Shown piece by piece: positions 6,776-54,240 of a stretch of 64,000 nt of DNA; position 1 is the first letter of the stretch; each line of letters opens with the position of its first letter. The notes under the pieces are model-generated. The model did no database searches, had not been told where the DNA came from, and worked only from the letters and a program-made list of their open reading frames with translations. The stretch is from Psammoneis japonica. Its lineage: Eukaryota. The position numbers and the translations under genes are program-made. The stretch is from assembly GCA_008632985.1 (NCBI GenBank), contig QPGO01000023.1:124001-188000 (forward strand), given 5' to 3'.

Positions 6776-7783
6776 TCAGCATTCAGATTCCGTATGAGAC
6801 GTGATACGAAGTCCAAGCAACTTGTGTTTGGCAGCCGTATATTCCTTGTCAGACAACCTTTTGGCCTTGTGCTGACTCGCTAGATTAGCCAGTTGCGAAA
6901 CAATCGCCTCGTCGGGAGAGATCGACCGATAGTTTGACCTTGCCGTCGCCACTGCAATGTACTTGATGTTGGTGGACAGATACTCATTGATTTCCTTGAC
7001 ACGAGGCATGACTCGATCGACATACCAGTCACTGTACTTCATCTTAAAGGCGGACGCGTCGGTTGCGGATGGAGCTGGCTCGAGGAATAAATGAGGCTCG
7101 TCAATCTCACAAATACCGCCTGTTTCAAAGCGAAGAACCATGTTCTGTTTCCAATCCTCGCGACCAACGGAAATCTTGTTAGGAGGTATCCACTCGGGTT
7201 TGGTCCAGGGCTTGCTCTTGTCTTGTTTGAGAACCATGGCTTTAATGGCTGCTTCTAGAAATTTGCGTCTTGACAGCGTCATCAAACAAACGTTTTTTCC
7301 TTCACACGAAATGAGAAGTCGAGACGCAACGGCTGGATCAGCAACGACCTGATTGTTGATGGTAAGCAAGTAATCTCCTACATGCATGCTTGTTTTGCCA
7401 AAGGGACCACGACTATCAATGTGATCAATCCGCACCAAACTCTCGTTCAAACGAGAGAATTCCAACGAGTTAAGCAGCTCGCGCGGATGATTCTGAACAA
7501 ACGTCAGCTCGCCGCCCTTGGGAAACGGATGGTTGGAAGCCATGATGTCGACTGGTCCTTCCACTTGTTTGAGATAGGCCACTGCCTTGTCTGCTTCCGA
7601 AAAGTGCTGGCGGTTAATGGTCAAGATTTCGTATCCAACCTTGAGCGACGTCTTGATGAAGGGACTGTCTGGCGACACGTTGGAGATTACCACATCCCCG
7701 TTTTGCATCATGAGACTGAGACCCAAATGAGAGCTCTGTCGCTGCTTGACAACAGACGCGTGAATGATGGACGGGATAATCAT
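6776..7783 (-). CDS. Tandem PDZ-domain protein with short C-terminal SHOCT-like helix pair
   Basis: LGLSL..VVISNV.PDSP....LKVGYEILTIN; second repeat GPFGKTSMHVGDYLLTINN; C-terminal LANLASQHKAKRLSDKEYTAAKHKLL. Confidence 0.8.
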   Translation of the reverse strand: MIIPSIIHASVVKQRQSSHLGLSLMMQNGDVVISNVSPDSPFIKTSLKVGYEILTINRQHFSEADKAVAYLKQVEGPVDIMASNHPFPKGGELTFVQNHPRELLNSLEFSRLNESLVRIDHIDSRGPFGKTSMHVGDYLLTINNQVVADPAVASRLLISCEGKNVCLMTLSRRKFLEAAIKAMVLKQDKSKPWTKPEWIPPNKISVGREDWKQNMVLRFETGGICEIDEPHLFLEPAPSATDASAFKMKYSDWYVDRVMPRVKEINEYLSTNIKYIAVATARSNYRSISPDEAIVSQLANLASQHKAKRLSDKEYTAAKHKLLGLRITSHTESEC

Positions 7784-7939
7784 GGTGGCAATAATGTATG
7801 GATGGGTACTTCTTACTTCATTCGCGGCAACGCTGATGTGACGATGCCGTGTGGAGTGTGACGGCGGGGCACGAGCGACACGTACCGTACTACCGGGTAC
7901 CAGGTGCCGGGTGCTGTACCGCAGAAACTCATTCTCCTG

Positions 7940-10900
7940 TTTGCAGAGGTGTTTTCTGGCTCATTTCACATCTTTTATCTTTTTGACAAAGCTCAAAGAG
8001 GAGGTTGACCTGGCCTTCTTGCACAGCACTGGCTCTCCTAGGTTGCTCAATGTTGCACAGTGCAAAAAAGACACGCTGCCAACTTGGCTGATCTTTTGCA
8101 GCACATGCAGAAGATGCTTGCAAGAAGGGGTGTCATCTTGAGCTTCTCTGCTGGGGTCCAGACAGCCAGCACTGACCAAAGCTGCACTTGTTTGTTTGCA
8201 GCATCTTGTGCCCCTTTGTGACAAGTGCTGCATCTGAGGCCCAGAGACTCCAATGTGATGACACATCAGGACTGGCCAAATGTGGATGTTTTTCTCTTCT
8301 CCGTGCGCTGTTTTTCTTGGCACATCTTTGGGCACAGTGTGTGGCTCCAGCCATGGTTTGGCATTCGAAAAACTGTTCCCTGGGGATCTCTTGGACAGCA
8401 AAAATGCACTCACAGCTCTTTGTGGGGTGAGAACCCACTCTCCATCACGGCAGTGTGAGTGTGCTGGCAAGATGGCACTTGTGAGAATGTTGCTTGTGTC
8501 ATCTGTTGTGAGCTTCTTGGCTTGATTCAGTTTGGTCAGGTTTTGTGTTGCTTGGCTCATGTGTCAATGAGAAGCTGGAAGTTTTGGTCCTTTGTCCATG
8601 CAAAGAACACCTGGAAAATCATTTTGACTGACAAGACTGCTTGGCATGCAGTGGAAACACAGCACTCTTGTCCTGCCAGGCCATGAAAAAATGGGGCCAT
8701 CAGATCAATTGTTTGGCTCAGAAGATTGGCTCCTGCTCATTTTTTTGTGCAGTCTCTTGTTGTCACTGCACAACAATGATTTCTCTGACTGCATTTCTAT
8801 GAAGGGGTTGATGAAAAAAAACAGCTCTGTGAATTTACACAGGCAAATCACTGAGGTGAGCCAAGGGTGGTTCACACATGAGCTTGCTTGTTGGAGATCG
8901 GCAGAGGTGCTTTTTGATGTGTTCTGTGTGTGTGCCACCATGCACTCTGTTGCAGCCAAAAAAATGCTCAGTTTAAAAGCACTTTTATGTTCATTGTTCA
9001 AAGCAAGTGATTCCACAGTCAACCATGTTAATCTGTTGGCACACACACTCATCCGTTGAGCCCAAGCTTCCTTCTCCCAAACCACACCCAGCTCCAAACA
9101 CCCATGTCATTCACCCCTTCACTGCTCCCTCCCCTGAAAAAAGATGCAGGGGGAGGGAGAGCTGTGGCTCTGTGGATCAGCCTGATGATCCAAACTAAAG
9201 CCAAAAGAGGCAACAACAGTGTCGGTCAGGCAGATTGAAAAACTGACCTTCCTCAGCTGTGCCCCCAAGTGCCTGCCAAAAAAAAGTTCCTCGCAGCACT
9301 GTGCCCCCTCCTTGCAGAAGAATGGACAAGAGTGTGTGGCTTAAAAGAGCAAGGGCCTGTGCACCTGTTGCAGCCAAACTTCCTTGAAGTGCTTGATGAG
9401 AAAATGACCACATCCAAAGACTGCCAAAAAAGAAATGACTGATGACAATGCCCACACACGTGCCAGCTTTCCAGATGCAAGACAGACAAAAAACTGTGGA
9501 TTTTGCTGGAGGCATCATTGTTCCTCAAAGTCATGACACAATGGTCAAATCAGGGGCCAAGGGTGAGCTCACACAAGTGCAGCTCACTTGAGGGGGGGCT
9601 CTGAGATGTGCACACACACATGTGTGCCAGCCTGGCTTGTTGTTGGCTGTGAGGCATGGCAGGGTGTGGTTGGTGGTCCACACACAGAGTGTTGTCATGT
9701 TGCCAAAGCCTTGTTCAGTCAACAGCATGCTCTCCTGGTCATTCAAAATGTCCATGACATGTTTTTGGCACAGCTGCTCAGCACTCATGAGCCACTGACC
9801 ACTCCGCATCTTGAGGCTCCAAAGCTGCTGCACTCTGCCTTGGTTCTGAGAAAGCAGCATGGTTTTTGGCCACCCATTGACTCTCAAAAATGCCCCACGA
9901 CTTTGGCTTGCAGCACCCCATTGCTTGCAACACAAGGAGATCTGCTCATCCAGAAACACCACCTGTTCACAGAGGTTCTCTGGCTTGTTTTGTACATTTT
10001 TTTGACAAAGCTCAAAATGAAAGTTGATCTGGCATGCTTTCACAGCACTGGCTCTCCTGGGTCACTCAGTGTGCAACACACCAAAGCAAGACACATTCCT
10101 GACTCAACTGATTTTTTGCAGTTCATGCAGAAGAGACCTGCAAGGGGGCAGTTTGGGGCTTCTGGGGTTCACACAGTTGATGATGACATCCCAAGTTGCA
10201 CTTGGACATTTGCAGCATCTTGTCCCTTTGACATGAGTGCTGCATTTGAGGCCCTGGGGTTTCAATGTGATCACACAGCAGGATTGGCCAAATGTGCAGA
10301 TTTTTTGCTTCTCTGCTGCTCTTTTTCTTGGCACATCTTTTGTGCACAATGTGCACCACGGTTTCAGCCATGGTTTGGCACCATTTGAAGCTGCACCATG
10401 CTGCAGGGTCCAGGGGTCTCTTGGGCATCAAATGCAATTGTGGCTCTGGATGGGTTGAGAACCCACCACCCTCCAGCCCCCTTCCCAGCAGCACAAGTGC
10501 TGGCAAGATGACGTGCATGAGAATGTTGTGTCATCTGTTTTGTCAGCTTCTTTGTTCAATTTGACCTGGTCCAGTTTTGTGTCACTTGGCTCTCATTTGT
10601 CAATGAGAAGCCAGAAGTTGGAGCCCATTGTCCATCCAAAGAAAACCTGGAGCAGATTTGTTTTGACTGACAAGACTGGCCAGACATTGAGTCTCTCCCC
10701 TGCTTGGTGGTGCAGCGGCATTGCCACACTCTTGTCCCACCTGTGACCACATGCCACTCACTCATGATCAATGCTCTTGTCAAACTTTAAGCTCCAGTCA
10801 TCTGCATCGTCATTCACCCCCCCTTCATTGCTGGCACCTCCCAAAAGAGTCAGGAGGCAGTGAAAAAAAGAGACCTGCAACTTTGTGGATCACCCTGTTG

Positions 10901-11180
10901 GTCAAAACACAAGCTGAAAGAAGAAACAGCAGCATTGGTCAGGCAGATTGAAAAGCTGCCCTTCCTCACCTGAGCCTTCAAACACCTGCCAGTTTGGCAA
11001 ACCCCAAGTGGCAAAGCTCAGCAGCTCAGCTCTTTGCAACACCCTCCTCGCACAAACAACAACAAGGGCATGTGGCACACAAAAGAGCAGGGGTTGCACC
11101 TGCAACCAAACTTCTCATTGCAGTGCTTGATGAGAAAATGACCACAACTGGAGATTGCTGCCAAAAAGAAATGAGTCAGA
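7940..11180 (+). repeat. Diverged direct duplication: copy A ~7940-8690 plus ~9100-9450; copy B ~9965-10750 plus ~10800-11180
   Basis: Shared anchors: ttttgacaaagctcaaa (7981/10000), cacagcactggctctcct, gtgctggcaagatg, ttttgactgacaagactg, ggtcaggcagattgaaaa, gtgcttgatgagaaaatgaccaca. Confidence 0.85.
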
Positions 11181-11419
11181 AAGAGATTGCCTTGGGAAAA
11201 AGATGACTCAAAGATGAAGCTGGCTCAGAAGAAAAAAAGCAACATTTGGAAAATTGATTTAGCAGGGTGACTTGAAAGATGAAGACAACCTGGAAAAAAC
11301 AAAGTTTTGGATGAGAAGGCAAGTTCTTGGAAAAGTGTGCACAACAAAAGATGACAATGTTTTCACCAACATGATTTTCTTTTGAAGAAAGGACAGGACA
11401 ACCAAACAACAAGAAACTG

Positions 11420-11965
11420 TTTCATGCAAGCCAAAACCTTTGCTTTTTTGTGGCTGTGAGTGGGTGAGGAGCCCAGCAACAAGTTTCTGTGCATGCAGTG
11501 TTGGACAACAACATTCTCTCACCCTGTTTGCAGTGGTGTTGCTGGGGTGGGCCCAGGAATGGACCAACTGTGGTCTGTGTTGGAAAACAAGGAAGAGTGG
11601 CACACAGCAGGTTGCTCCATGGGTGTTGGATTTGGTGGATTTTGTTGGCATGGCAGAACTGCCACCTCCCCACATTATGGAGTTCTTCTCAACTGCCATT
11701 TTGTGGTGCAGCACCAGCACAAAGTTGCACCTGCTGTGTGCCTTTTTGATCACAAAGCTTTGCTTGGAGGCATGATGCTCTTCTCTTTCTTGTTGGGTCA
11801 TGTCTGTCCAAGGTGTTGTGTGGGTTTCTGGAGGAAAAAAATCCCCACAGTTGAAAAACATGTCAGGATGTTGAGTGCCATGGAGTGGTTGTTGGTGAAG
11901 AACAGCACACCAACCGTCATTGCTGAAACCACAAAAAGAAGCTTGGATTTAACCTCACTCTGACC
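11420..11965 (-). pseudogene. Decayed gene remnant with N-terminal hydrophobic anchor, product unknown
   Basis: SEVKSKLLFVVSAMTVGVLFFTNN, then frameshifted FFPPETHTTPWTDMTQQEREEHH; no Tyr. Confidence 0.3.
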
Positions 11966-12591
11966 GCTGAATGAGAGAAAAGTGTGTGGCAACAACTGGT
12001 TGACTCTTCTTAAAAAGAAAGAAGAGGTGCAAGATGTTGTCAACACTGTCTTTGCAGCCCGTGCGATGTTCGGCGCTCGTTTTTCATTGGGAGTCAAACA
12101 TCAGAATCACAGCCCATCGCGCGTGCGGGCTCTGCACCACATGTGTGGATATGTCGTTCATTCAGACGGTCCTGACTGAGAGTGGATCAAGCTTCACTGT
12201 AAGACGAGCGGCAATGTAGAATATCTCAAACTGCAACCACTATATCCTCGTCCGGTAACACCACATGGAATAAAACGACTGTGGTTTTCATGCTAGGTTA
12301 GTAGAGGGGCTTGCACCTGACCCTGACAACGGCGAGTCTTGCATTTTCGTTTGATTGTGGGCGTTGGGTAAAGGTAGTTCTATAACTCGAATGATCATTC
12401 AATGGCAAGCTGCGGAATGCTTTGTGGTCGCCGCAAGGAGAGCTCGACCGAACAGGAGCCCCTGACGACTTGCACTCTAGTATGAAGAGCAGCGAGATTA
12501 TGGTCACCGCGTAGGATCGTCTTTCCCTTCGTTCGCATCTGCTATGCTACGCCTATATGTTCCTATGTAGAAGCTGGCCACTGCGACTGGC

Positions 12592-13869
12592 TCAGGACAT
12601 TAGGCGACCTGCTATGACTTCAGAACATCCTCGAGTATCCCCGCCGCCCTTCTTGACCCAAGTTCCATCATTCTGCTTCCAAAATGACTTTGTGTTGCGC
12701 TCAACTCCTTTGTGACGCCCCATTACTTTCCCGCTTTTGGGGTCCTTAATCTTGTGGCCGTAACCTGTAGACTGGTATACAGGAATACGCCATTGTTGGC
12801 CTTTCACGGATTCTGCAGGCCCGGCGACAAAAACAACATGGCCAGTGTTGGATTGGTTTGAATTAAGGGCCTCCTCGATTCTATCCTCTTCCAACAGCAA
12901 AACGTCTTTCAATTCCTTGCTGAGCTTTCTATCTTTCATTTTGGCTCTCAGCTTCTGAAGGTTGTCGATTTTGAGGTTTTTGAGCTTCTCAAGTTTCTCC
13001 GAAATCTCCTTGTCGAAACTTTCGGCTTTTCGGCGATAGTTTGTTTCGTTGTGGACTACGCGTTCGTCCCCATCGTCCTCGCTATCGTCGGCATCGTCTT
13101 CATCATACAGTTCTGAAGTTTTGACTCTTATGAGCAATTCCTTAAGTCCCTCTTCCGACGTTTCATCCTTGACCTTTACGTATTCTGCTCCACCAGCGGC
13201 GCATCCTTTGACCCTGTACACTAGAACATCGCCTGGAACAACCATCCTTATGTCACATATCTGTCGCCAGTCGTAACCAGCCCCCGGCTCTGTCTTATTC
13301 ATTTTGCTAAAATAGTCAAAATAGTCCTTGGCTCTCATGTAGTCTCGGTCACTTATCTGCAAAGTGATTTTCTTACTTTTGATTTCCTCATTCAAGGCCG
13401 TGGATTGAACGAATCGAACGAATCCAGAGCAGTCTACAAACATTTCCCCGTCAACGTCGAACTTTTGTTTTCCCACGAAGCCTTTTTTTGGACCATGTCT
13501 ATAAACTGTAACTGTATCCATCTTTGTACCCTTCTCTTCTTCTCTAATAACTCGGTGAACGGCTCTCTTGGCAACCCTGAGGCATTCTGCTTGATCTGGT
13601 CCAGGCAAAAACTTTAGCAGACCGTCAAAGGTGTCTTTAGACAACCGATGTCCATCAGGTAGGTTCTCATTCACGTTGTCTTTTCCTATACGGCAAGCCA
13701 CGGAAAGTTTCGCAATGGAATCAATATGAGCATATTTCTCTAAATCTCTGCACCGGTTCTTCGCCCATTTCTTGGCGTCGTCTTCCTCTTTCTTCTGCTC
13801 GTAGATCGCGAACGCTTTCAGAGCTTCCTCAAGCTGATGAGCATCACTTTCTCGTGTTTTCCAATTCAT
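12592..13869 (-). CDS. NlpC/P60-superfamily (papain-like amidase) protein with a large acidic insertion
   Basis: 425-aa intact ORF with the ordered motifs VDCSGFV, VPGDVLVY and NTGHVVFV. Confidence 0.65.
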   Translation of the reverse strand: MNWKTRESDAHQLEEALKAFAIYEQKKEEDDAKKWAKNRCRDLEKYAHIDSIAKLSVACRIGKDNVNENLPDGHRLSKDTFDGLLKFLPGPDQAECLRVAKRAVHRVIREEEKGTKMDTVTVYRHGPKKGFVGKQKFDVDGEMFVDCSGFVRFVQSTALNEEIKSKKITLQISDRDYMRAKDYFDYFSKMNKTEPGAGYDWRQICDIRMVVPGDVLVYRVKGCAAGGAEYVKVKDETSEEGLKELLIRVKTSELYDEDDADDSEDDGDERVVHNETNYRRKAESFDKEISEKLEKLKNLKIDNLQKLRAKMKDRKLSKELKDVLLLEEDRIEEALNSNQSNTGHVVFVAGPAESVKGQQWRIPVYQSTGYGHKIKDPKSGKVMGRHKGVERNTKSFWKQNDGTWVKKGGGDTRGCSEVIAGRLMS

Positions 13870-14259
13870 TCTGACTGCAGGGGGGTGTCACTGCTAATCA
13901 AAGTCGTCCTGAACGACAGCCACTGTTCGATCGATGAAGCCTGTATGGTTGCATGCTGTTGAAGTGAACGATTCGATGTGATGAGAGATGAGATGAATCA
14001 AATGATGGATGGTGCGAACGCTGAATCCAGAAATCCAAAATGCAGTCGTGGTCGCGCGGGCGATTCGTGTTACCCGTCAGCGCGAAGTTGAAGTGCGCTC
14101 TCGAGCTTTTTGTCTTTCCAAAAAGCTCAAAATAGCTCGAGCCGCAGGATTTTCTTCTGTCATTGGACTTACGGCATGCATCATGGCATCATCACGATGT
14201 TGTCACAGCAGGGCTACTTCTTGTTCCATCATACTGTAATACGGTAAGGCCGCCAAACC

Positions 14260-15120
14260 ATGAAGACAGATCAAAGTGGCAACGATAAGATTCATGTTGA
14301 TGCCCACAAGGGTGAAGCGTTGTCCAGAAACAACTCGAGAAGGTCTCCAAGAAGCGCGTCAGAAACAGAAACGTTGCTTCTGACGGCTGACGACAAGAAC
14401 GAGTGTGATTCACAACTTGTTGAAACAAACAACAAGAACTCTGTTGCAAGAACAAGCGATTCATCTTCGAGCAATTGGAGCGGATTCTTTGTGCAACATT
14501 TGAATCGAAAGACCATGTTTCTTGCCGGCGTCGCGGTTGTTGTGGGCGTTGGTTTAACAGCAGCAGGTGCCGCCTGTGTGCTTGCATTGATTGCTCTCTT
14601 GACATCTCCCACATGGCTTCCTGTTGGGCTCATGACATGTCCCTTCTGGTCACCACTGGCATTGCTCACGTCTCCTCTGTGGGTGTCGGGGTTGGTCTTG
14701 TTGGCAATCGGATTTGCATGGTGCGTGGCTGGAGCGGCCTTTGTTGCGGCAGTTTTTATCTTTTTCGCGTGGCCGACCGAGTGGTTGCCCAAGGATTCGA
14801 GCAAAGCGGAGTGGTTCTTGATGAAACGGAGTTGCGTGACTCTCTTTCTCATCAAGCTTCAAGCCAAACTTGTTTTGCACTCAGCTGGTGTTGGACCCTT
14901 GGCGGATGCCACCTTTGCGATTGCCGATCGCATTGACCTTGTTGAGTTGCAGAAGGCCATGGCTGACTTTGATTTACAACAGTGGGCTGATCAAGTGAGA
15001 CAAATGGACATTGCGCAAATGCAAGCAGTGCTTGTTGCTGCCATTCGATCCGTGGTTGGTCTGCAATCTGATGAAAGTTTCGAATGTGAGGGGCACTGGG
15101 ATTGTTTCGTGAAAGTCTAA
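14260..15120 (+). CDS. Oleosin-like long hydrophobic hairpin protein; Tyr-free, TA-mutated copy (possibly a pseudogene)
   Basis: ~90-aa hydrophobic stretch with proline-knot-like TSPTWLP/TCPFWSP/LLTSPLW; no Tyr in 286 aa; CG retained while TA is nearly absent. Confidence 0.55.
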   Translation: MKTDQSGNDKIHVDAHKGEALSRNNSRRSPRSASETETLLLTADDKNECDSQLVETNNKNSVARTSDSSSSNWSGFFVQHLNRKTMFLAGVAVVVGVGLTAAGAACVLALIALLTSPTWLPVGLMTCPFWSPLALLTSPLWVSGLVLLAIGFAWCVAGAAFVAAVFIFFAWPTEWLPKDSSKAEWFLMKRSCVTLFLIKLQAKLVLHSAGVGPLADATFAIADRIDLVELQKAMADFDLQQWADQVRQMDIAQMQAVLVAAIRSVVGLQSDESFECEGHWDCFVKV

Positions 15121-15799
15121 TTTAGCACACCACCATGGGCAACAGAAAAAGCAAGGCTGTGTTTCATCACAATGTGCCGTCTTAACAACAACATGCGTGC
15201 TGTGTGCATTGAGCTCAACGAAGAAGCGAGCAGGCAGTCGTGTGGCAGAGAGGGCAAAGGACACTCTTGAAACCACCAGGTGGGTCTGCCCGTCAAGTTG
15301 CAGCAAACGTTCTCGGTTGCCAGAGAGAAGTCAGCCAGAGGACCAATCAAGCAACTGTCACTTGGTGTCAAAAAGTCAAGATGAGGAAGCTCTGCAACAC
15401 CTCAAAAAAGAACTCGACCGGAAAGCTTGTTTCCTGTGGGATTTGACAGAGAGAGGCAATTTGCCGATTTCAGCTGGGACCGTCTCAATGGATTCACCAG
15501 AATGCAACTGGAGATTGCGCAAGCCATCATGTTTGCCAACTGTGCCAGGCAGCCTGCAAGTGAGTTCAGCTGAAAATGATTTGGGCCAACAGGAATGACT
15601 GACTCCAGTGAAGTGGTGAGAGAACCTTCCAGATCATTCTTCTGACCAAAGAAAGGGAAGAGCATCAGATTGGCAGTGAGACAAAACTCTTCAAGATTCT
15701 CCAAGGAGAAAGTTTCAAAAGTGCTGCTTCTTTTTAATTCACGCTGCAAGCAGCAAAAGGTCCTGAGACAAACAATCCCCCCAAGCAGCATCTGCAGCT

Positions 15800-16385
15800 G
15801 TTGAAGCAACTTGGTCTTTCATGGACCACAACTCTTCACCCTTGGTGCCCAAAGCACTGCAGAGCTCCAGTCAGCAGCCACAATGCCCCACAAGCAGCAT
15901 GACTGGCCCTCTTTGTTTGAGCATCAACAGTTGTTGAAGCAGCATCAAACCCATCCTCAGCAAGAATGAAAGACCTTCAATGGAGTTGATTCCTTTGCTT
16001 TTCTCTGTCTTGTCTTCATGCAGCAAAATCTCCAACTCACATTGACTGGAGTCAACTCCAGAAAGAACCTCAATTTTTTGTTGTCGTGTGACTTCCAAGC
16101 TTTTGCTCAGTCCTTCATGGATGATTCTCCATCCTTGGTTCCCAGCACATGACCACCAGAGAGCTCCTGCTGGCAATCACTGAACAGCTCCCAAGAAGCA
16201 GCTTGGGTGCCACAGCTTGTTCTGGCACTGACGACAATTGAAGTTGCTCAGTCTTTCATGGACAACTCTCTGCCCTTGGTCTCCAATGTGCCACAGAGCT
16301 CTGGTCAGGCCAATGGTCACAAAGCAGTCTCCAGGCAGCTTGGTCAGCCTGGTTTGCTTGAGCATCAACAGGTTGAGACAGTGTC
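15800..16385. repeat. Three diverged internal repeats in a decayed gene
   Basis: Recurrent gtc(t/c)ttcatgga..cc(c/a)ttggt..agagctc unit at ~15812, ~16108 and ~16250; tgagcatcaacag recurs at ~15918 and ~16359. Confidence 0.55.
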
Positions 16386-16964
16386 AAGCCCGCTGCTCAC
16401 ATCATGGGTTGCAGCAGACACCCGCATTTCATCAGCGGCAAACAACCTTCCACAGAGTTGAGTGCTTTGCATCTCTGTCTTGTTTTCATTTGGCAAAGTG
16501 TCCAACCTGTGCTCTGGAGATGAAAAAAAGAGAAGCAGCAGGCACAACTTGGCCAAGGCTGCAGCAGCATTGCCAACCACCACAGGCACAAAACACAGCC
16601 ACTTTTCTCACATTGGCAGCAGTGCATCCCCTTGTGTGACATGTGCCAGCAGTCAGTGCTGTTGATGGCAGGACCTTGTGACTTGCTTCTGATGGCCACA
16701 GCAGGGTGCGGCAACACTTCTGCTCCCAAGATTGCTGTCTCAACCTTGCCAGCTGCTTTTTGGGAGAAAACACTGGCCCCAGCAGATGCCTGCTGCACCA
16801 ACCCTTGCCAAAAGAGGGGCCAAAAGCTTTGTGAAGCCCATGTTGCCAGGGCCAAAGCAGAGCTTTTCTTGACAGCAAGAGCTGTTGGAAATGCGTGGCT
16901 TTCTCCCGCTGGACAGCGGCACATCAGGAAAAGGGGAAGACAACCCTGAGAAACCCAAACACAG

Positions 16965-17620
16965 ATGTGAGGTCATGTTTTGTTGGTGTGTTGCTCAATG
17001 ACAAGCCTCCCTCCACAATGTGTCACAAATTGGTGCATTGGCGGAGCCAAAGATGGAACTCACAACCCAAGTTGAGCTGCAGTTTGGTGCAGAGAACAGC
17101 GCAAAACTGACAGCCTGTTGGGCTGTCTGCTCCCCTCCATTGGATTGCATGGCAAGCCTTCAACAAGAGAGATGGAAGAGTTGCCATCACATTCTGTCTT
17201 GGCGCATGGTGTAGATTGATTGGGAGAGTCAATTGGGGGAAAAGGGAGCCAACACATCCAAGAGGCAATTGGAGCAGATTTTCAAATCTTGGTGGCAGAA
17301 AACAATGTCTTTTGACTTCCCCCAGCACATTTGCCTTTGTCTTTGGTGCCTTTGCCAGTGTCAAGAGAACTGGCAAGGGTTTGGACAGTGAGTGTGACAT
17401 TGGAAAGCTTGCTCAATCTTTGTTGAAAAGTTCACACCAGAAGCACAAAAGGGTTGCTCAAGTGAAGCCACCAAGAATTTTGACATTTTCTTGCATGCGA
17501 TGGGTCTCAACCCAAAGGACACACCAAGACAGCAGCAGTCATGTCACCACAAAAGATTGTGTGTGTGTTGAAAAAACCCTTCAATCCATGGAAGATGGCA
17601 GCCTCAAGGTTCGAGTTCAT
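16965..17620 (+). pseudogene. ABC1/UbiB atypical kinase fragment, copy 1 (internally deleted, frameshifted)
   Basis: FPSTFAFVFGAFASVKRTGKGLDSECDIGKLAQ...TLQSMEDGSLKVRV matches the ABC1K C-terminal consensus (FRFP.TF.F..RAF....GIGKGLD). Confidence 0.75.
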
Positions 17621-17702
17621 GAGTTGACCTGTTTTTGTGGGTGTTGGTGTGGTTTTTGCACCAGGGAAAGGGGCAAGACAATTCCGAAAAACTGGGGCAA
17701 AA

Positions 17703-18395
17703 TCTGAGGTCACATTTTGTTGTTGTTAGTGTGTGTCACTCAATGGCAAGCCCCCACAATGTGTCACAAAAATGGGCATCAGCAGAGCCAAAGATGTGGA
17801 GCTCACAACCCAAGCTGAGCTGCAGCTTGGCATGGAGAACAGCACAAAACTGACAGCTTGTTGAGCTGCCTGTTCCTCCATTGGATTGCATGGCAAGCCT
17901 TCAACAAGAGATGGAAGAGTTGCCATCACATTCCACAATGACACGTGGTTTGGATCAAGCAGTGGTGGAAAACAGGCAAGATGCTTTGTGCGTGCTTTCA
18001 GGGACAATCAATTGGAAAAAAAGGGAGCAAGCATCAATGAGACATTTGGGATGGATTTGCAAACCTTGATGGAAAACAATGTTTTTCGATTTCCCATCAC
18101 ATTTGCCTTTGTCTTTTGTGCTTTGGCCAGTGTCGAGGGAATTGGCAAGGGCTTGGGCAGTGAGTGTGACCTTGAAAAGCTTGCTCAACCCTTTGTTGAA
18201 AAGTTCACAGAAGCACAAAAGAGGTGCTCAAGTGAAGCCGCCAAGAATTTTGATGTGTTCTTGTGAGCGACGGGTCACAATCCAAAGGATGTCGAGACGG
18301 CAGTCATGCCGCTACGAATCCATAGATGACGGCAGCCTCAAGGTTCGAGTTCGATCCTTGGAAAACGAAAAAGCCCCGGAGCGAATGGCTCTTTT
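17703..18395 (+). pseudogene. ABC1/UbiB atypical kinase fragment, copy 2 (tandem duplicate)
   Basis: ENNVFRFPITFAFVFCALASVEGIGKGLGSECDLEKLAQPFVEKFTE...GSLKVRVRSLENEKAPERMAL; clear nucleotide alignment with copy 1. Confidence 0.8.
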
Positions 18396-19779
18396 TTTGC
18401 GCAGGGAGGATCGGAAAAGATTTTGGTTGCATCGCTCATGCTCAACTTTGCGGGAATTGAGAGTCGACCCATTTTTTCGGGTGTGGGTGTGGTTGAAGCT
18501 GCAATCGGTGTTCTTCAGGCTGTCACGGCAAACGCAAAGGTCAAGAAGTTCGATAAAACATATGCCAAGTTTGTCCAAACCAAGTTTGAAGGCGAAGCCT
18601 AGAGTTGAAGGTCGAAGTTGTTTTTATATTTGTTGGGTTTGTTGGTTCATTCATCCCTCTATATGTAGAGAACATAGTGCTTTAGTTTTGTCGAATATAA
18701 ACAGTTTGCTTTTTCTCGAAGTTTGGAGAAGAGGCAAGATGAATCAGAAACCCCATCTCTAGCTTATTTCTTAGAGAGTAGATACTCGTAGAGACTGCTA
18801 TTAGGTACTCGCTTGAGAAGGTAGATTGTACCCCGGAACTTGACGATCAAACACGTCGCACCACGAAATGCTCTTTGCACCGACCATTTCGCTGGAATTG
18901 ATCTTTCTTCGGTGTGGGAACAATCCACCGAAGACACAGCACCTTACGATTGCAAAAGGGGTGCGACGCCACAGCAAGATCAACCATCGCGTCTGCAGCT
19001 TTGTCGGGGTGGAGAGCGACAATGGAGCTGGGTGTTTCACCGCAATGAGCAAAACAGCGCCTTGATCTATTTGATGAAAAGTTGTGCCATCTCCATCAGG
19101 CGTGTCCCCAATCCACACCCGCAGTGTTCCATGCGGGGCGACTGCATTGTCTGAGTTGTTGGAATTCGAGGCAGCCCAAGACCACGTTCGCAAGCAAATG
19201 TGCAACACCCCGCTGCAAGAACAAATCCAAGTACGTCATCAATGTGTCAGGGAAGCTATCACCACCAAGATATTATAATCGTGGAGACCACAGCCCAAAG
19301 ATAACCGTCACGATGGCATAATGAAGTCGCTCATACAACATAATCGTGGAGACAACAGCCCATCAGAATACTGGAAAGAACACCCAATCAATCGCCCATG
19401 ATCATCATCGGCGGGCTCATGTAGTTCTTTCACCGGGAAGCGGCAAGACGTTGGTTAGCTTTATAATCTTGCGAGGTTTGCGATAGAAGGAGTGGGGCTA
19501 AGTAGATCAAGAATCCTGTCGGCCGTTTACTTCCGGAGCAAGAGACCCTTTTGACGATACAAGCCAGCACAATGGAGTAGTTGGCGCGTTATTAAGAGGA
19601 ACGGGGAGGAGAAGGACGCATTCAAGCATGGGAATTCCTCATTACGGATGGCCGTGCTTGTATCGGCTCGGTTCATAGCAGCTCGTGCATCTTCTTTCCG
19701 CTGATGGACGAGTTATTCGATGGTCGGCACCAATCTTGAATCGCGGGTAGAAGTGAATTGGGAATGTTCGAGTGCCGTA

Positions 19780-19900
19780 CGGAAGAAAAAGAAGAAGAGT
19801 CGGAGTGTTCGAGAGATAGCTTGAGAGAGAAGAATTTGAGACTTCGAGAGAGATGAGAAGAGGAGTCGGAGAGCTTGAGAGAAGCTAAGCGTGCGAAGCG
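19780..19900 (+). repeat. GA-rich low-complexity tract
   Basis: Irregular gagagaaga/gagtcggag units. Confidence 0.5.
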
Positions 19901-20906
19901 AGCATCAAGTCAGCGGGGAGGTCGGAGAAGTACAGATCTTGAAGCTGTCGCTGGGTTCGCTCAAATTTGCAATTGATGCCATCCGCTCCGATTGATTGTT
20001 CTTTTGTTTCGGTCACAAGTTCTTCGTCCCCACCTTATTGTTCCCTGATGGTTGGCTGGAGGTATTGTGTGATTGCGGATTGGTTGGAGCGGTCAAATCC
20101 TTCCATTTGACACCGGGTGAGAATCGATCATGAACTTATTGTTTCATACTTCGTGGCGCTCGCCGTGACTCATCTATTATGCAACAAAGTTCATACTCAG
20201 CCATGTCACAGACCTGTATCAACAAACAATGTGACTGGAGAAGAACTTCTTGGTCGAACTGAGGGTAATCAATTCTCTTCCAGCCCACCGCAGCCTTAGC
20301 AAAAAATATTGAACCCAAGGAGTGTTCATGGGTCTTCACTTGGTGTGCGAGTGCGATGAAGTACTTGGTAATTACTTCAATCGTTATTTCTGTTAGCGTA
20401 CAAGCAGAAAATGAGTGTAGTATAGTTGTTACGTGATAAATTGTACGGTGTGTGATTTCTGATCAAAGAATTCTCACCTCTAAAGTTCGTTCGAAAGGCT
20501 TAGAACTTGGTGCAGAATCTGGAGAAGCGAGAGAAATCAACGAAGGACCGAGTTCTAGAATCAAATAGTGCATCTACCGTCGGAGTTGAGGCGTGGCGAC
20601 ACAACAAACTCACTTTTCGTCAGGCACAGGATCGTGAGCATGACTTAGTAATGGCGTTGCGGCGAAGTTGTATCAGTTTTGAGAGTTGATGTTCTTGCGA
20701 GAAGCTGCCGGTGTTGTTGGTGTTGGCTCCTGAATCTGATGATGACGCGAAAAGGCACCGCCATTTCCACCCATATCTCGAAACGTAAAGATTCCTCCTC
20801 GTCGTGAGATGGTGTGTATGAACTATGAACAGTGCTGCGAACGAAATGGGAGAAGATGCGCTGCGACAATCTCAAAATCTGCCATGCGTCATTGCGGTGT
20901 GTTTAT

Positions 20907-21255
20907 CCCTGCTTATGCACACGAACCACCTGGTGGTCCGTGTGCATTTTGGGTGCACACGAACCACCTGGTGGTTCGTGTGCACCCTACGCAAAATGCT
21001 GCGTAGATTTGTACAGAATAAATCTGAGTACAGTAAATCCGACGTAGGATCTACGTGTTTGTACCACTCAACACTTGTCCACCGAGCCGGCAGTCTGTGC
21101 CGGCCGTCGTGATAAATATTTTATGTCAAAGAAAGAGTTCGTCAGGGCCGGCGAACAACACCCCACTACGATGCGACTGGTATAAAATGTACGTAAATGC
21201 ACAGGACCAGCATGTGGTTCGTGTGCAAATTAGAGCTCGTGAAAAATAAGCAGGG
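20907..21255. mobile_element. Non-autonomous piggyBac-like element (MITE, 349 bp)
   Basis: TTAT|CCCTGCTTAT ... ATAAGCAGGG|TTAT: 4-bp TSD, CCC/GGG termini, 10-bp TIR. Subterminal palindromes at 20916-20946, 20951-20987 (perfect 18-bp arms) and 21198-21227, asymmetrically spaced. Confidence 0.8.
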
Positions 21256-21344
21256 TTATGCTCGGGCGGGCGGAAGCAGGAAATCTTCTTGGAGCGTGGA
21301 GCTCGTTCAATGACGTCATGGGGTTCGCCCAAGCTAGCTACAGT

Positions 21345-23200
21345 GCACAAAATGTGACAGTGAAAACACCGTTGGTTTCCCGCCACATTTTCAAAAATTT
21401 TGAAACGGCAGACCGGGACACATGAAATCCGAATCACTTTGCTCATTGTTGACGAAGCACACAAATCGCCATTCGACCGTTTGAAACACATCGTTGTCTT
21501 TATTGCCATGGTTGATTCCACAACTCTGCCACAGGTGAGTCGATCGTCTCGTTCTCGTTGAGAACCAGATCTGCTGGAGTCAAGTCATTGAATGTCGTCT
21601 GCACACGATTGCCATGTAGACCTGAAGGCTTGGGTCCTTGACGGTTTTCCTCTGTGTGTTTGATTGCGTGCATCTTTGGAAGTCTGTTCGAGGCGAAATG
21701 ACGATTGCCTGTCAAAGCAGTCCGTGGTTCCGACGGAGATGCACCAAGATTGCCAGCAAACTCGCTTCTTGCGTGTGCGCTGAATGCTTGTGAACATCCA
21801 ATGTGGCAGCAACCCGGTGCCAACCAACGCACTTTTTAGTGCAACGGTTGTTCAAGCAGGAACCACATGAGGGCCAGCCTCTGCTTTCTTTTTGAACGCA
21901 CGCTGAATGCCTGCAGACGTCATGGACCAAGATGGTGTGCTTGACAACCCCGAAGGGCAGCCTTTTTCGTGAAGGTTGCAAGGTGGTTCAGACCGCTTGA
22001 GTTGCTCATTGAGCATCTCACATCTGATCCCCCACAGGTTTGATGCTCCTGTGGGTCACCGGCCCGTTGCATCAGCCACATTCTCCACGCCCCACAGCAC
22101 CTGAAGATCTGTTTTGTTGCATTTGCAATTGTGACCGTCTTGCTGAGTCATGCTTCATGACTCACACTCTTTTTTCAGATTTGATTTCCATTTGGACAGA
22201 CGACATGAATGGAGACATGCAAGAAGGAGGAGCTGCACATTGACAGGTCGTCAACAGCTGGTTCATGTTGGCAATGGTGTTGCTCTTGTTGTCGCTTTAG
22301 TCCCCGAAAGAGCAAGGCACGATGCTCCGTGTCATGGATGCCATTCAAGCCATCTGAATCTAAGTGCTGCGCTCATGTTCTCTCGGACGTGATCTTGGTC
22401 AGTCGCGCAAGCTAGTTCACAAGGCATCCAACCACAATTGGGATGCAAGGCTTTGACGTTTGACAAGGATCGATGCACCATCGTCCTCGTTGCGACCGCA
22501 CGCCGGCGGAAGTCTTCAAAAAGCTTGTTGTTGCGGTCTTCCCAAGTCCCCGCCCCAAGAACACAATCACAGTCTTCCAAGTGGTTCATCATGCAGCAAG
22601 AACTCTTGTCACTGCTCAAGCTCTGTCGAGTCAAAAGAGCCAAAAGGACGCAGCACTGTGGGCATTTCAACGGTCGCCCTTGTTCCGTTGGAATGGCACC
22701 CGTGACCTCCGACAGGCATCTGCATCACAAGACATTCAGGATCATTCAGCAAATGCAAAGCTGTGTGAGCACTCCAAGATTCCGCAGTCCACTTCACTGA
22801 GAGAGTGTTGAGATCAAGAGCCCAATCTGCATTCAAGATCAATCAAGCCCGACAAGGCCAACTGTCTCCAGAAAGAAGAAAGCTGCTGCAGCTTTGATGA
22901 ACCATTGCAATGCTGACCAAGATGTGGCAACAGCTGTGCATTGCAAATTCCAGCCCCATCCAGCACCGCACTGCTCGAAAAGCGATGCAATCTGAAATGC
23001 CATCTCAAGGATCCACTGCTCAGTTGGTCGCAGCAACGACGGCATTCCAAGCTTCGACTGCCTGTGTTGCTCGCAAAGCGTTGGTGCAAGAATGACATTT
23101 GCTCTTGAAGGTCCCCGTTGCTCCAACGTCAGATCACTTGTGCCAGCGGGACATTGATTGAGCAATCTCACTCAAAGCTTGATTGACGAATGCGATCGTT
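21345..23200. other. TA-depleted hypermutated domain 3 (CG partly retained)
   Basis: Very few TA, many CG still present; ORF peptides nearly Tyr-free. Confidence 0.8.
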
Positions 23201-23560
23201 GGAAGCTTGTACCTCTCCAAAAGCTCCGAGAAGCACCCTTCACTCAAATCACGCAAATTTCTTGAGAGCATAAACTGAAGCATCTGCAGCATAGCTTCAT
23301 CGATTCAACAAGACAGACGGCAAGTGAAGAGGCCATTTTGAAGGTTGGATGCTTGCAGTGCGTCTCAAGTACTCTCCTCTCCTGTAAGGCATCCAATTGC
23401 TTCGTGTGGACCCAAGATGCGGCCCCGACTGACGTTCTGGCTTCAAGCGACCGGAAATGGAAGAAAAACGACGGCCAAGCATTCTTGCAGTGTCGGACTG
23501 CGACTCGCCCTCTCTGCAGAAGGACGACTACCATTCATACGTGTGTAGCAAAGAAACATT
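21508..23560 (+). pseudogene. Decayed intron-containing gene of unknown product
   Basis: ATG at 21508, 9-codon exon, GTGAGT..TAG intron 21535-21619, then a protein-like frame interrupted by TGA codons (plausibly former CGA). Confidence 0.35.
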
Positions 23561-23604
23561 TAGTGGAACAATTCGCACTAATGAATAGCTCCATAATTGG
23601 CAAG

Positions 23605-23928
23605 TGCCATGCTTACCTCGATGACGCACTCGCTTCGTTTTGCCTTCATTGCAGCCACATTAATTATTTTAAAACAATGCCTGAGATTGAAAGTGCATCG
23701 GGTATTAATGCGGCTTTGAGTTGCCTTTCTCCAATAGTTGATCACCGTCGCCTCCGTGACTTTTGCCATGCTTACCTCGATGATCGCACTCGCTTCTTTT
23801 TGCCTTCATTGCAGCCACATTATCTTTTTAAAACAATGCCTGAGATTGAAAGTGCATCGGGGTATTAACACGGCTTTGAGTTGCCTTTCTCCAATAGTTG
23901 ATCACCGTCGCCTCCGTGATTTTTGCCA
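23605..23928 (+). repeat. Near-identical ~159-bp tandem duplication
   Basis: tgccatgcttacctcgatga...gatcaccgtcgcctccgtga repeated at 23605 and 23764. Confidence 0.9.
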
Positions 23929-24761
23929 GAGGCATAATGAACGTGGTGAGATATGCAAACAAGCCTCTTAAAGATCCATCATCCGCCAAATAATTCAAGT
24001 GTGGTGTTTCCTCTTTCCCACGTAATCTGTCTCTAGGCTTTTGTATCTGCTGACTCGTCATGCAGTCCTCGGTATAGTAGCTGCAAAATGCTGCGCTGTG
24101 AGTAGTGGAAAGAACCGTGAATGAGAACTGTGCATTACTGCCGGAACTCTGTTTCAATCCATGGTCATGCATGCATCTGAAATGTCGGTAAAAAGGATTG
24201 AGCAAGTCGTTGCGCATACATCGTTGGCGAACAGTAGAGGAGAGAACTTTCATGACACAGAGCACAAGTTCCAAATGAAAACGTTGACTCTTACAATTCT
24301 GCACAGTGTACAAGAAGTAAGCATTTTTATAGAAGAACTTTTTGTCGAACGCAAAATATGAGCAAGAGAAAGACTCACTGATCCAGTCCTTCAGTAGGGT
24401 GCTTTTCGTCATTATACATCGGATTTAGATTCAATACAGTGCATGCATCTCGGTAATCAACAGAAGCTGATTAACGCCGTCGATAAGCAAAGAACACATC
24501 GACAGCAGGATTATGCCATGCATGATGCGGGGCTTGGTGTCACAATGAGGCTGCCAGCTGTTGCGAGTCCACAACGACACGATAGAAACTAACGGACGAA
24601 AGGGACACGAGGTCATGCTCTCCGTCATCCTGTGCGAGTGCTCTCTGTATATGTTTCATTCTGTCCATTTCGTGACCTGGAAAGGACGTCAAAGCACAAG
24701 GCACTGGTAAGGCTGCAGGGCATCTTGCAATGCAAAATTCTCCACGACCAAATCCTTAATT

Positions 24762-26118: not shown

Positions 26119-27705
26119 ATGAAAAGAAAGAATATTGTGCCGATCCGGACGGCACTAGTCCTTGTCTTTTTCACAATCCATGGAGGCATACAGTTGCGAT
26201 TGCTCCTAGTATCAACAAACTCAAAAGAAAGCACAAACTGGCAAAAAGAAACATTCCACCAACCAATTGTCGAAACGCCACCACAAACCGATGATATAAA
26301 ACCAACCAGACATTTCAATGTATCAACTTCGAATGCTTTTGCCTCATCATCGACGGCAGAGAAGGAAAAAGATTGGGAATTTCTACCCGCAGATAGCAAA
26401 AAAATCCGTAAATGGGGATGCGGCAGAACAGAGACACCGTTCATCTTTGTGCACATTGGAAAGGCTGGCGGGGGGAGCGTACGAGCGAGATTAGCAGCCA
26501 GCAGTCACAATTATACACGAACAAAACCATTGCAACGGGACCTGTCATTTTATCCAATTGGAGGTAGCAACGAAACTGTGGCTCGTTCCTGCAATAGCTG
26601 TTTCTTACACCGACGCCCAACAAAGGAATTTGCGTACGAGGGAACACGACTTTGCCAAGCTAAAACCCCGTTGGGTAGAGCCATTGGATGCCCTGAAGCT
26701 ACTGAGCAATATGCGCAAGAGCTTGGTGGAGTGGCGGATGTTTGTGCACTAGATAGCGATGAGTGTCGACTCGTTTACTTTGGTCATAATATTTTCGGTG
26801 CCGAGATGCACTGGCTTCCGGGGCCTTACCTATCAAAATGGTGGTCCTCGCGGTGGGGCAACAATCCGATGACTCCACTATTTGATTTACTGCATCCAAA
26901 GAATCATTGGTGTTTTTATATAAGCAAGGATCGACCCGACACTAGATATGACTACAAGGAGAAGTATCAACAGTGCTCTATCCCATTGCAAAAATCGGCG
27001 GACAAACAAGCAATAAAATCCCTTTCTCGTTTGATGGCGAAAAATGGCCAATCCGAAATTACATCTTGGGCTCCAGTATACTCATCCATGCCAGTTCTCA
27101 GAGCAACCTTGGTTAGAGACCCACTCGACTGGATACTCTCCAAATTCTTGTGGCATCGCAAACAAAGAAACGTTGAAATGTACGACAAGTGTGACGATAT
27201 AGATCTTGCGGTGCAACAAGGCGTTGTAATACCGGAAAACCAAAGCGGCATGGACAGTAGCGCGCCGGGTTGGCTCATTCGCATGTCACTCGGATACATT
27301 ATGCAATTGTGTGGGGAGGACTGTATTTCGCGATATGCTGCAGGAACAGCCACATTGGAGGATCTCGAAAGGCAGGCGGAAGGCAACCTAAGACAAGGAT
27401 TTGCCGTTGTGGGTGTGCTTGAGGATGGCGTTGACGTATTTTTCGAAATGATTTCAAAGCGTGTTGAATACATTGATACATCGCTCAACCAACAGATAGT
27501 GGGTATGCGGCATTCAACTCAGGGAAGTCCAGAGATGAGTGTCTGTCGCAAGCGGTTTCAGGATCCGGAGTTTCAAAAGGAGCTTTTTGCTAGGGCACCC
27601 GAATTTGAGGCTCTGACTCGACTGTACAAAGTTGCAAAGGAAGTCAATGAATTTCAAAAGCATGAGCTAGAGAAGTGTCCAGGAAATGCTCTCTCCGAAA
27701 GATAA
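26119..27705 (+). CDS. Type II membrane sulfotransferase-like protein
   Basis: N-terminal TM; 5'-PAPS-like FVHIGKAGGGS; 3'-PAPS-like TLVRDPLDWILSKF; FAVVGVLE. Confidence 0.75.
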   Translation: MKRKNIVPIRTALVLVFFTIHGGIQLRLLLVSTNSKESTNWQKETFHQPIVETPPQTDDIKPTRHFNVSTSNAFASSSTAEKEKDWEFLPADSKKIRKWGCGRTETPFIFVHIGKAGGGSVRARLAASSHNYTRTKPLQRDLSFYPIGGSNETVARSCNSCFLHRRPTKEFAYEGTRLCQAKTPLGRAIGCPEATEQYAQELGGVADVCALDSDECRLVYFGHNIFGAEMHWLPGPYLSKWWSSRWGNNPMTPLFDLLHPKNHWCFYISKDRPDTRYDYKEKYQQCSIPLQKSADKQAIKSLSRLMAKNGQSEITSWAPVYSSMPVLRATLVRDPLDWILSKFLWHRKQRNVEMYDKCDDIDLAVQQGVVIPENQSGMDSSAPGWLIRMSLGYIMQLCGEDCISRYAAGTATLEDLERQAEGNLRQGFAVVGVLEDGVDVFFEMISKRVEYIDTSLNQQIVGMRHSTQGSPEMSVCRKRFQDPEFQKELFARAPEFEALTRLYKVAKEVNEFQKHELEKCPGNALSER

Positions 27706-46760: not shown

Positions 46761-47072
46761 AGCATCGTGGAGTGCGGCTTGGGGAACACCTACTAGTATT
46801 GCAGGCAACAGGTTTATACCTCATCCAATGATATCCTTGGACCGCGCAGCACCGGTTTGGGGGCATCTCTTCATTCAACTCCATACGTAGCCATCTCATT
46901 AGCATCGTGGAGTGCGGCTTGGAGAGCACCTACTAGAGTATTGCAGGCAACATGATTATTATACCTCATCCAATGATATCCTTGGACCGCGCAGCACCGG
47001 CTTGGGGGCAGCTTCTTAATCCTGGTCAGCAGGATTATCTCTTCATTACGCTCCATATGTAGCCATCTCATT
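46761..47072 (+). repeat. ~140-bp tandem duplication between convergent gene 3' ends; second copy has a short insertion
   Basis: agcatcgtggagtgcggcttgg... at 46761 and 46901. Confidence 0.85.
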
Positions 47073-53239: not shown

Positions 53240-54240
53240 AATCTGCGGAACAGCACACGAAACAGCATGTTTGTTTGTTGTTTGTGATGCAATCATGTGG
53301 AACTTGCACCTCTCCATTTGTCCATGCCTCAAAGCAAAACTTGAAAGATCCGAGAGCACATGCGATGATGATGCGCTTGCTCTCAATGGTGCGGCATTGA
53401 GCGACAAATCTGTTGTTCCACAAGAGGCTGGCAACATTGACCAAGTTGAGCGCAATGTGCAGCACAGTCAACACAGCACAGAAATGAAAGGGGCTCACTC
53501 TGACTCTTTAGAGCTTTTGGAGCAGCACAAGCAGGTTGTCTTTTTCCATGTGTTCCTTGTCAAGACAGGGTGGGAAAAGCCATCAGAAATCCTTGCTTTG
53601 GTTCTTGAGGACTTTGAAGCCTTTTTGTGGAATGTCCCAGCCATGGGATTCATCTGTGGCACTGCCAAAGATGTGAGAGAGTGCATGCAGGCCAAGCCAA
53701 CAAGCACTTCCAGAGGAGCACAAAGTGAGGCATCATGAAAACACTGCCAGAGTGCTGGTCGTCAAAAAAAAATCACCAGCTTGTGCTGCAGCTCACTCCC
53801 AATGCAAGTTTGGCACATGAAATGGAAGTGGTGCATGTTGTGCATCTGCAGCTGCTGGCATTTTCTTTGTGGTGGTGACTGGGGTGGCTGGCAGCCTGGA
53901 TGACACAATGCATGTGTTGCCATCTGTGCACATCAAGACAATGACGGTGGTGAGTGGACATGGCCAATTGAGCCAGCAGCGCTTGGCAGCATCCTTCAGC
54001 AAAGATGGCAGGGTGTTGGCTCTTGGAGCCAAATGCAGTGGCAGCAGTGTTGGGGGGGCATCTCCAGCCAGCAGCTGGCCAAAGAATCTTGTGTGAAACT
54101 GGTGTGGTGCTGAAAGAGTCTGTCAATCAGCGCATTTGGGGGATTTGGCCAGGATTTGGTGAATGCTGGACAGACTCAATGCAGGAGAATTTCCCTGCCA
54201 ATTTAGAGGAAGCAACACCTGCTCAAATCTGCAAGTGAAA
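53240..54240 (-). pseudogene. Decayed gene, membrane-protein-like C-terminus, unknown product
   Basis: Protein-like frames QILAKSPK...RFFGQLLAGDAPP...RCWLNWPCP and AVLTVLHIALNLVNVASLLW...IIIACALGSFKFCF. Confidence 0.3.

Follow-up and report, generated by a model that had tools for sequence, protein, structure and literature searches.

The window analysed here is a stretch of 64,000 nucleotides of Psammoneis japonica (contig QPGO01000023.1 of assembly GCA_008632985.1, positions 124,001 to 188,000 of the forward strand); all positions below are those of the window. The subject is an open reading frame (ORF) that fills the left flank of a domain very poor in the dinucleotide TA (TpA), and the mutational process that could account for this state. 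The features of the locus are listed below. Domains, cores and intergenic regions are given without strand; o/e, observed/expected ratio of a dinucleotide.

13870..14259: intergenic region between divergent genes; TA density normal
14246-18554: TA-poor domain with 12 TA in ~4.3 kb; CG-poor core at about 15518-18087
14260..15120, + strand: ORF of 286 aa (861 nt); TA o/e 0.09, CG o/e 0.81
15518..18087: core poor in CG and TA, which contains a tandem duplication and no Pfam domain

Composition of the gene

The ORF contains 5 TA (o/e 0.09), 42 CG (0.81), 63 CA (1.50) and 99 TG (1.47), and its translation includes no Tyr, 5 His and 7 Cys. A first description, made from the letters of the DNA (the sequence-only reading), had reported an intact ORF of 286 aa with plentiful CG, about 5 TA and no Tyr; all of these features are present, and the CG-rich strings that it quoted are found in the ORF. 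Neither a frameshift nor an in-frame TGA occurs across the 286 codons. Apart from this ORF, the window has 17 that reach 250 aa or more; their TA o/e is 0.42-0.67, 0.8-3.6% of their residues are Tyr, and their stop codons are TAA (6), TAG (6) and TGA (5). At their mean TA o/e (0.54), 29.2 TA would be expected in the ORF (Poisson probability of 5 or fewer, 4.5e-8). The window background has TA o/e 0.60 and CG o/e 0.98, with a median TA spacing of 16 nt window-wide.

Coding sequences of five orthologous loci, taken from metagenome contigs, have TA o/e of 0.39-0.59 and CG o/e of 0.81-1.02. Over the conserved last 187 codons, 3 TA are found in the window ORF versus 11-17 in the orthologues; sorted by codon phase, the remaining TA number 1, 2 and 2 versus 1-4, 5-13 and 7-11. 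All five TA remaining in the ORF belong to the TTA/TAA class. The orthologous loci have no 500-nt stretch with TA o/e below 0.33, so the phenomenon is not seen at the loci of the relatives.

On the left, the domain has an abrupt edge: 14232-14245 still contains four TA, after which TA recurs at 14286 and then at 14555. This edge lies 15 nt before the ATG of the ORF, and the TA-poor state continues unbroken into 3.4 kb of downstream non-coding sequence.

The effect of conversion on composition was simulated by randomly turning each TA, or each TA and each CG, of background sequence into TG or CA. The CG o/e of the ORF (0.81) is close to that obtained when only TA is converted (0.83); therefore no CG has been lost from the ORF. 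The gene has lost ~80% of its own TA and none of its own CG, which bears out the earlier proposal that TA loss here is independent of CG loss.

The gene family and its predicted structure

A word-indexed protein search found 10 homologues (E 2e-62 to 2e-49; 40-55% identity), and an exhaustive search of 1.84 billion representatives found 27 at E <= 0.001; together they give 36 distinct homologous proteins. Of the 16 homologue clusters that were looked up, none has any name but 'hypothetical protein'. The window protein was aligned with 28 homologues (alignment A2); eight of the 36 (P0009, P0018, P0020 and P0032-P0036) were left out, being weak matches or fragments no longer than 182 aa. The window protein keeps 38 of the 42 strongly conserved columns of the family.

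In the AlphaFold2 model (mean predicted local distance difference test score, pLDDT, 66), residues 1-81 are disordered and are followed by hydrophobic helices at 83-126, 130-137 and 139-170 (pLDDT ~62-85) and by a helical C-terminal domain at 181-265. The hydrophobic segment is punctuated by prolines, carries three conserved SPxW motifs and is predicted to form a helical hairpin.

The sequence-only reading had called the ORF oleosin-like and host-type. The first label is not upheld as an identity: hmmscan against Pfam-A (E <= 1) gave NblA as the sole match (E = 0.019, under the cut-off), and the oleosin profile (PF01277) is absent from its matches, so that oleosin was rejected. Foldseek against PDB with the model of the window protein gave no match at E <= 0.001, and a Protein Atlas search with the window protein gave no usable match. 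Stramenopile lipid-droplet proteins are described, in the part of the source consulted, as having a proline-punctuated hydrophobic hairpin (PMC8100218). Like oleosins, StLDP and LDSP as presented there, the window protein has a central hydrophobic segment, prolines and a predicted helical hairpin; unlike them, its family has no Pfam oleosin match, no named homologue and a conserved helical C-terminal domain. 'Oleosin-like' would thus denote a resemblance only, by way of the modelled hairpin. The second label holds: with 36 homologues and no transposon domain in the ORF, this is, judging from conservation, a real and conserved gene of host type that encodes a predicted membrane protein.

A second copy in read contigs

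Public read run X1 contains 84% of the sampled words of 13000-19000, and its contigs were placed on 7000-24000. Independently built contigs (word depth 50-67) agree with the window to within 0-1 differences, whether they lie in the blocks or beyond them: for instance, one difference is found in the core (16087-17163) and none in the neighbouring gene (12666-13605). A second form is ~90% identical to the window, has a depth of 62.3 versus 66.8, and is collinear over 12666-15132 (at least 2.5 kb). Its divergence is ~8-11%, with 107 differences over 12666-13605 (940 nt), and 71 differences plus 29 gap letters over 14233-15132 (900 nt). It is either a divergent haplotype (allele) or a recent segmental duplicate.

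Among the differences listed, which run up to 14532, 20 lie in the ORF. Six of these have TG or CA in the window and TA in the second copy, and one is the reverse; five of the six TA-type differences alter the amino acid.

In a smaller run (X2), no contig was found on the cores 8134-12102 and 15505-18339, and the flanks are covered; this may be due to chance or to a filter effect. Run X3 yielded nothing, and neither run is used for a conclusion.

Recoded sites and the probable loss of a stop codon

The sites at which the window copy differs from its relatives or from the second copy are the following.

14404..14406, + strand: Cys49, codon TGT; TAT (Tyr) in the second copy
14515..14517, + strand: Met86, codon ATG; ATA (Ile) in the second copy; the near-orthologue consensus is Ile (8/9)
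14878..14880, + strand: His207, codon CAC, at the invariant Tyr site of the family; CAC is the expected TA->CA product of TAC
15064..15066, + strand: Gln269, codon CAA, where the frames of the family end; probable former stop codon (putative TAA->CAA)
15064..15120, + strand: C-terminal extension of 18 residues, QSDESFECEGHWDCFVKV, and TAA stop; missing from all homologues

Tyr occupies the column of window His207 in 28/28 homologues, and its codon is TAC in all five orthologue DNAs; LVLHSAG of the window protein is LVLYAAG in relatives. Comparison of these sequences indicates that the invariant Tyr has become His (TAC->CAC) in the window copy, and comparison with the second copy likewise indicates Tyr to Cys (TAT->TGT) and Ile to Met (ATA->ATG) changes. 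The recoding of Tyr to His or Cys had been proposed for the ORF, with LVLHSAG as an example. It stands at His207 (Tyr in 28/28) and at Cys49 (Tyr in the second copy), and it concerns only about 2-3 codons of a protein whose family is Tyr-poor.

The CAA noted earlier after IRSVVGL is at 15064-15066 and is followed by 17 codons and by TAA at 15118-15120. From window Ser264 to the end of the protein there are 3-6 residues in 28/28 homologues versus 22 in the window protein, and AlphaFold2 gives the tail pLDDT below 50 (residues 268-271 and 273-286). The stop codon was probably erased by TAA->CAA, which would have added 18 residues; this reading, not proven, is the most economical one, since it takes a single change of the kind that is locally rampant. 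Of the erased stop suggested earlier, the position is supported, all 28 homologues ending near 15064; TAA as the original codon is unproven, the orthologues having TGA in 5/5.

Tyr is present in the orthologues, TA is not scarce in them (o/e 0.39-0.59), and they end in a different C-terminus; the sequence-only reading had named the opposite state as the one that would speak against it. From the near-orthologue consensus, 22 deviations of the window protein are explicable by a single transition, the inferred ancestor having TA in six and CG in five; none of the 22 creates a new TA or a new CG in the window.

These data bear on the explanation that no targeted mutation took place, the ORF having odd codon usage or a composition typical of its lineage, together with a longer C-terminus specific to that lineage. 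The family is indeed Tyr-poor, and the C-termini of the homologues differ by a few residues. Against this, the TA-poor state runs through 3.4 kb of non-coding sequence, with an abrupt end 15 nt ahead of the ATG, none of the three codon phases has escaped the loss of TA, the deficit has the Poisson probability given above, and an invariant residue is altered. Absence of targeted mutation is accordingly regarded as highly improbable.

About equally improbable is a reversed polarity, in which C->T changes at CpA, of the type found in repeat-induced point mutation (RIP), made TA in the second copy and left the window copy unmutated. The window and the second copy, taken alone, give no direction, and the DNMT4 enzymes of diatoms are relatives of the fungal RIP enzyme RID, according to the part of the source consulted (PMC9998398). 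The outgroups do give a direction: they have Tyr in 28/28 at the window His, and the consensus Ile equals the second copy at the window Met. It is also the window ORF that is the outlier, with TA o/e of 0.09 versus 0.42-0.67 in its neighbours and 0.39-0.59 in its orthologues, and CA and TG are enriched in the domain, not depleted. Because the ORF is a conserved gene with outgroups, TA is shown to be ancestral, which gives the process its direction.

TA-poor domains and conversion of TpA

Besides the domain that contains the ORF, four TA-poor domains are found in the window.

8039-11950: TA-poor domain; CG-poor core 7920-11915
21339-23210: TA-poor domain without CG-poor core; CG o/e 0.5-0.8; partly overlaps a high-copy repeat recognised by contig depth
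53217-54929: TA-poor domain; CG-poor core 53451-54946
55323-60091: TA-poor domain; CG-poor core 55410-56993; 57000-60091 is TA-poor only

TA o/e is 0.03-0.09 and CA/TG o/e is 1.5-1.8 in the domains; CG o/e is 0.09 in the cores. The cores contain diverged duplicates, and the ORF is not repeated within the window. TA loss extends past CG loss in three domains (14246-15518, 21339-23210 and 57000-60091). In the domain of the ORF, the overhang is 1.27 kb on the left and about 0.2-0.45 kb on the right. The earlier proposal that TA loss spreads further than CG loss agrees with these limits (TA-poor 14246-18554 versus CG-poor ~15518-18087) and with the two copies of the tandem duplication.

16925..17620, + strand: tandem-duplicate copy A, wholly within the core
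17662..18352, + strand: tandem-duplicate copy B, which spans the right edge of the core

At nine sites past 18087 at which copy A has TG or CA, copy B keeps CG, and at two more (18313 and 18323) it keeps TA; no site shows the reverse. What became of one and the same sequence thus depended on where it lay. At 18254-18290, within the stretch where copy B retains CG, there are three TG<->CA double differences; TA loss therefore outruns CG loss on the right side also.

CA<->TG is by far the most frequent double difference in all three diverged repeat pairs of the cores (10, 18 and 8 cases; the next one, at most 5); counted among all dinucleotide differences of these pairs, it ranks first or third. 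The eight most frequent double differences listed for a control repeat pair outside the cores do not include it. Such differences mark the separate conversion, in each copy, of a single ancestral dinucleotide.

The dinucleotide composition of the blocks is reproduced by simulated conversion: that of TA and CG gives CA/TG of 1.96/1.93 versus 1.84/1.83 observed; that of TA only gives CA/TG of 1.50/1.49 with CG 0.83 versus 1.61/1.61 with CG 0.63 observed in the TA-only zones. AA is not depleted in the domains (o/e 1.27-1.31 versus 1.14 in the background and 1.15-1.28 simulated). The TA that survive in the domains are in TTA/TAA context in 39 of 50 cases, versus 735 of 1978 (37%) outside. Scaled from the density outside, survival is ~2.5% for VTAB sites, ~97% of which are gone, and ~15% for TTA/TAA sites. 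Runs of strand-coordinated TG-type or CA-type changes were sought in 500-nt windows, and the counts are equally variable in the background. The process is specific to TpA, consists of transitions only, is bounded by position, is independent of and wider than CpG loss, and is near-saturating.

An artefact of sequencing or assembly would arise if modified bases at palindromic CG and TA were misread by a long-read basecaller or polisher, the true gene being unchanged. Both CG and TA are palindromes, like typical modification sites; no platform is recorded for the read run, which may itself be the data of the assembly. Nevertheless, the independently built contigs show only 0-1 differences from the window at word depth 50-67, and duplicates differ at the same ancestral site, one having TG and its partner CA, which is not expected of strand-independent miscalling of a consensus. 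Moreover, a 396-bp element with terminal inverted repeats (TIRs), located within a depleted domain, has normal TA and CG, and the edges of the domains are abrupt, within about 15 nt. Such an artefact is considered very unlikely, slightly less so than the two preceding alternatives.

It is thus highly probable that this copy of a conserved, single-copy gene lies in a 4.3-kb domain (14246-18554) whose TpA have almost all become TpG or CpA through transitions.

Functional state of the gene copy

A further explanation accepts the same mutations and competes only with the reading of the gene as intact: the copy would be an already silenced, decaying allele. The invariant Tyr is lost, and the tail of 18 residues is predicted to be unstructured. 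Five of the six TA-type differences listed from the second copy alter the amino acid. Across codon boundaries, conversions favour the non-synonymous T|G, which is raised in the ORF (0.164 versus 0.108 in the other ORFs), over the synonymous C|A, which is not (0.077 versus 0.082); this fits a copy that is no longer under strong selection. In addition, TA->TG/CA never turns a sense codon into a stop, so that the open frame is no evidence of function. In favour of an intact gene, 38 of the 42 strongly conserved columns are kept, and 286 codons are free of frameshift and TGA. That the copy is already a decaying allele is given slightly less than an even chance.

Several points weigh against the reading of the locus as a host gene recoded by TpA conversion. 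The preference for T|G is one of them, and so are the unrecorded platform and possibly shared origin of the read run. The differences from the second copy are listed up to 14532, short of 14878 and 15064. 'No Tyr' is by itself weak evidence: of the 28 homologues, 10 contain a single Tyr and 23 no more than three. In a family so poor in Tyr by nature, only 2-3 codons account for the lack of this residue. The orthologue stop is TGA, not TAA, in all five DNAs. Orthologue L005 (protein P0012) ends in GKQ followed by the stop, its Gln being aligned to window Gln269, so the lost stop might lie one codon further on. The ancestral codons are weakly inferred because the orthologues are just 40-55% identical. 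Lastly, the mechanism is purely a matter of deduction.

Comparison with known mutational systems

Known forms of targeted repeat hypermutation are C->T at CpA (fungal RIP) and the decay of methylated CpG. RIP gives TpA and AT-rich DNA, and leaks into neighbouring single-copy genes. Like RIP, the changes in the window are transitions at a single dinucleotide, in a sharp-edged, repeat-containing block, with spill into a flanking gene that is recoded; diverged duplicates lie in the cores and the ORF in a TA-poor flank, as leakage of the RIP type would have it. Unlike RIP, the polarity is opposite (TpA to CpA/TpG; TA o/e 0.03-0.09, CA/TG 1.5-1.8), and the organism, judged by its genes and homologues, is no fungus. 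RIP itself was rejected: the TpA excess and CpA/TpG deficit that characterise it are not found in the domains, and the outgroups show TA to be ancestral. The nearest known kind would be RIP with leakage into flanking genes, here with a different target, opposite polarity and a different lineage. RIP is named in the part consulted of PMC9998398; the RID-related DNMT4 enzymes described there may serve as a lead only.

Deamination of 5-methylcytosine at CpG resembles the process in that a palindromic dinucleotide is lost to TG/CA, as is seen in the cores. It differs in that it cannot act on TpA, and the ORF lost TA and kept CG. Such decay was rejected for the ORF (42 CG; o/e 0.81 versus 0.83 in the simulation without CG loss); the loss of CG to TG/CA that goes with it is seen in the cores (CG 0.09).

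Hyper-editing of A to I by ADAR and A->G mutagenesis by polymerase eta at WA motifs both prefer a 5' T/U and both hit AA. The process in the window is, like them, consistent with A->G after a 5' T; unlike them, its loss of targets is nearly complete (~97% of VTAB sites). ADAR also acts on RNA; as a second genomic copy runs collinear with the window copy, an RNA intermediate is disfavoured. Mutagenesis of either type is disfavoured because AA is spared (o/e 1.27-1.31).

Proposed process

The domain surrounds a repeat-containing core (~15518-18087), from which CpG too has been lost, as happens in methylated DNA. The conversions could be the work of an enzyme-like activity that is seeded at a methylated repeat, acts on silenced chromatin and is limited by position, not by sequence. 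It would be specific for the TpA step, acting best at VTAB and more poorly at TTA/TAA. As the TpA process reaches further than CpG loss, the gene has lost ~80% of its TA and no CG. As to chemistry, a deamination of adenine to hypoxanthine in DNA, read as A->G on either strand, is tentatively preferred, although its confidence is well below even. Mispairing with G of an oxidised thymine (5-hydroxymethyluracil, 5hmU, or 5-formyluracil, 5fU) is the second candidate, and a rather unlikely one.

An enzyme acting on YpA, which would make CG from CA at unmethylated edges, had also been put forward. It does not fit: CA is enriched (1.5-1.8), CG in the TA-only zones is 0.63 versus 0.83 simulated, and new CG derived from CA or TG appears at 0/22 of the single-transition deviations. 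Among the differences listed from the second copy, CG is window-only at four sites and second-copy-only at one, which is also explained by ordinary CpG decay in the second copy.

In its broadest form, the proposal is that the organism has a natural 'anti-RIP': a hypermutation of A:T to G:C in DNA at TpA (VTAB preferred), over whole silenced chromatin domains, independent of and wider than cytosine methylation, which removes ~97% of its targets and recodes host genes nearby. It would be catalysed by an adenine deaminase or a thymine-modifying enzyme that occurs naturally and acts on genomic DNA. This proposal is credited with slightly less than an even chance. In full-text literature searches, no description of hypermutation by TpA loss was found, and PMC2806351 contains no passage that bears on it. 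If true, the erasure of TpA by A:T->G:C across domains of kilobase size would add a new force of mutation to those acting on a eukaryotic genome and suggest that adenine is edited, or thymine modified, in DNA by a natural enzyme; a dedicated enzyme of this kind would be new. Host genes pay a price, as the ORF shows: here an altered invariant residue and, probably, a lost stop codon. The process would bias base composition, remove TAA and TAG stops and possibly create false long ORFs in annotation.

Other features of the TA-poor domains and of the window

Pfam searches on 37 stop-to-stop ORFs of at least 110 aa from the TA-poor domains gave two chance-level matches only, and three domain ORFs that were translated resemble random frames. 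No further host-type gene was found in a TA-poor flank in 17800-21400. The tRNA scan found no gene.

In the tandem duplication of the core, an X1 contig (depth 37) skips 792 nt at 17254-18046, which is one duplication unit, and has 12 other letters instead; a form with a single unit seems to exist.

The 396-bp element located at 54944-55339, in a depleted domain, has TIRs of 24 nt (92% complementary), further subterminal inverted repeats and perhaps TTTG on both flanks; the segment 55001-55500 has normal TA o/e (0.60) and CG o/e (1.09). It looks like a young insertion of the type of miniature inverted-repeat transposable elements, which is either later than the conversions or was spared by them.

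Over 20608-22308, the summed depth of X1 contigs is 1000-2400 versus about 55-67 for single contigs elsewhere. This region is a high-copy repeat, the right part of which is TA-poor with CG o/e 0.5-0.8.

The ORFs at 26119-27705 (+ strand) and 28700-29701 (- strand) are paralogues in inverted orientation that share ~65% identity over 1.3 kb; they have no Pfam match and a normal dinucleotide composition. Short tandem duplications are found at 23605-23928 (166 nt, 95%), 46761-47013 (113 nt, 90%) and 60101-60248 (81 nt, 94%).

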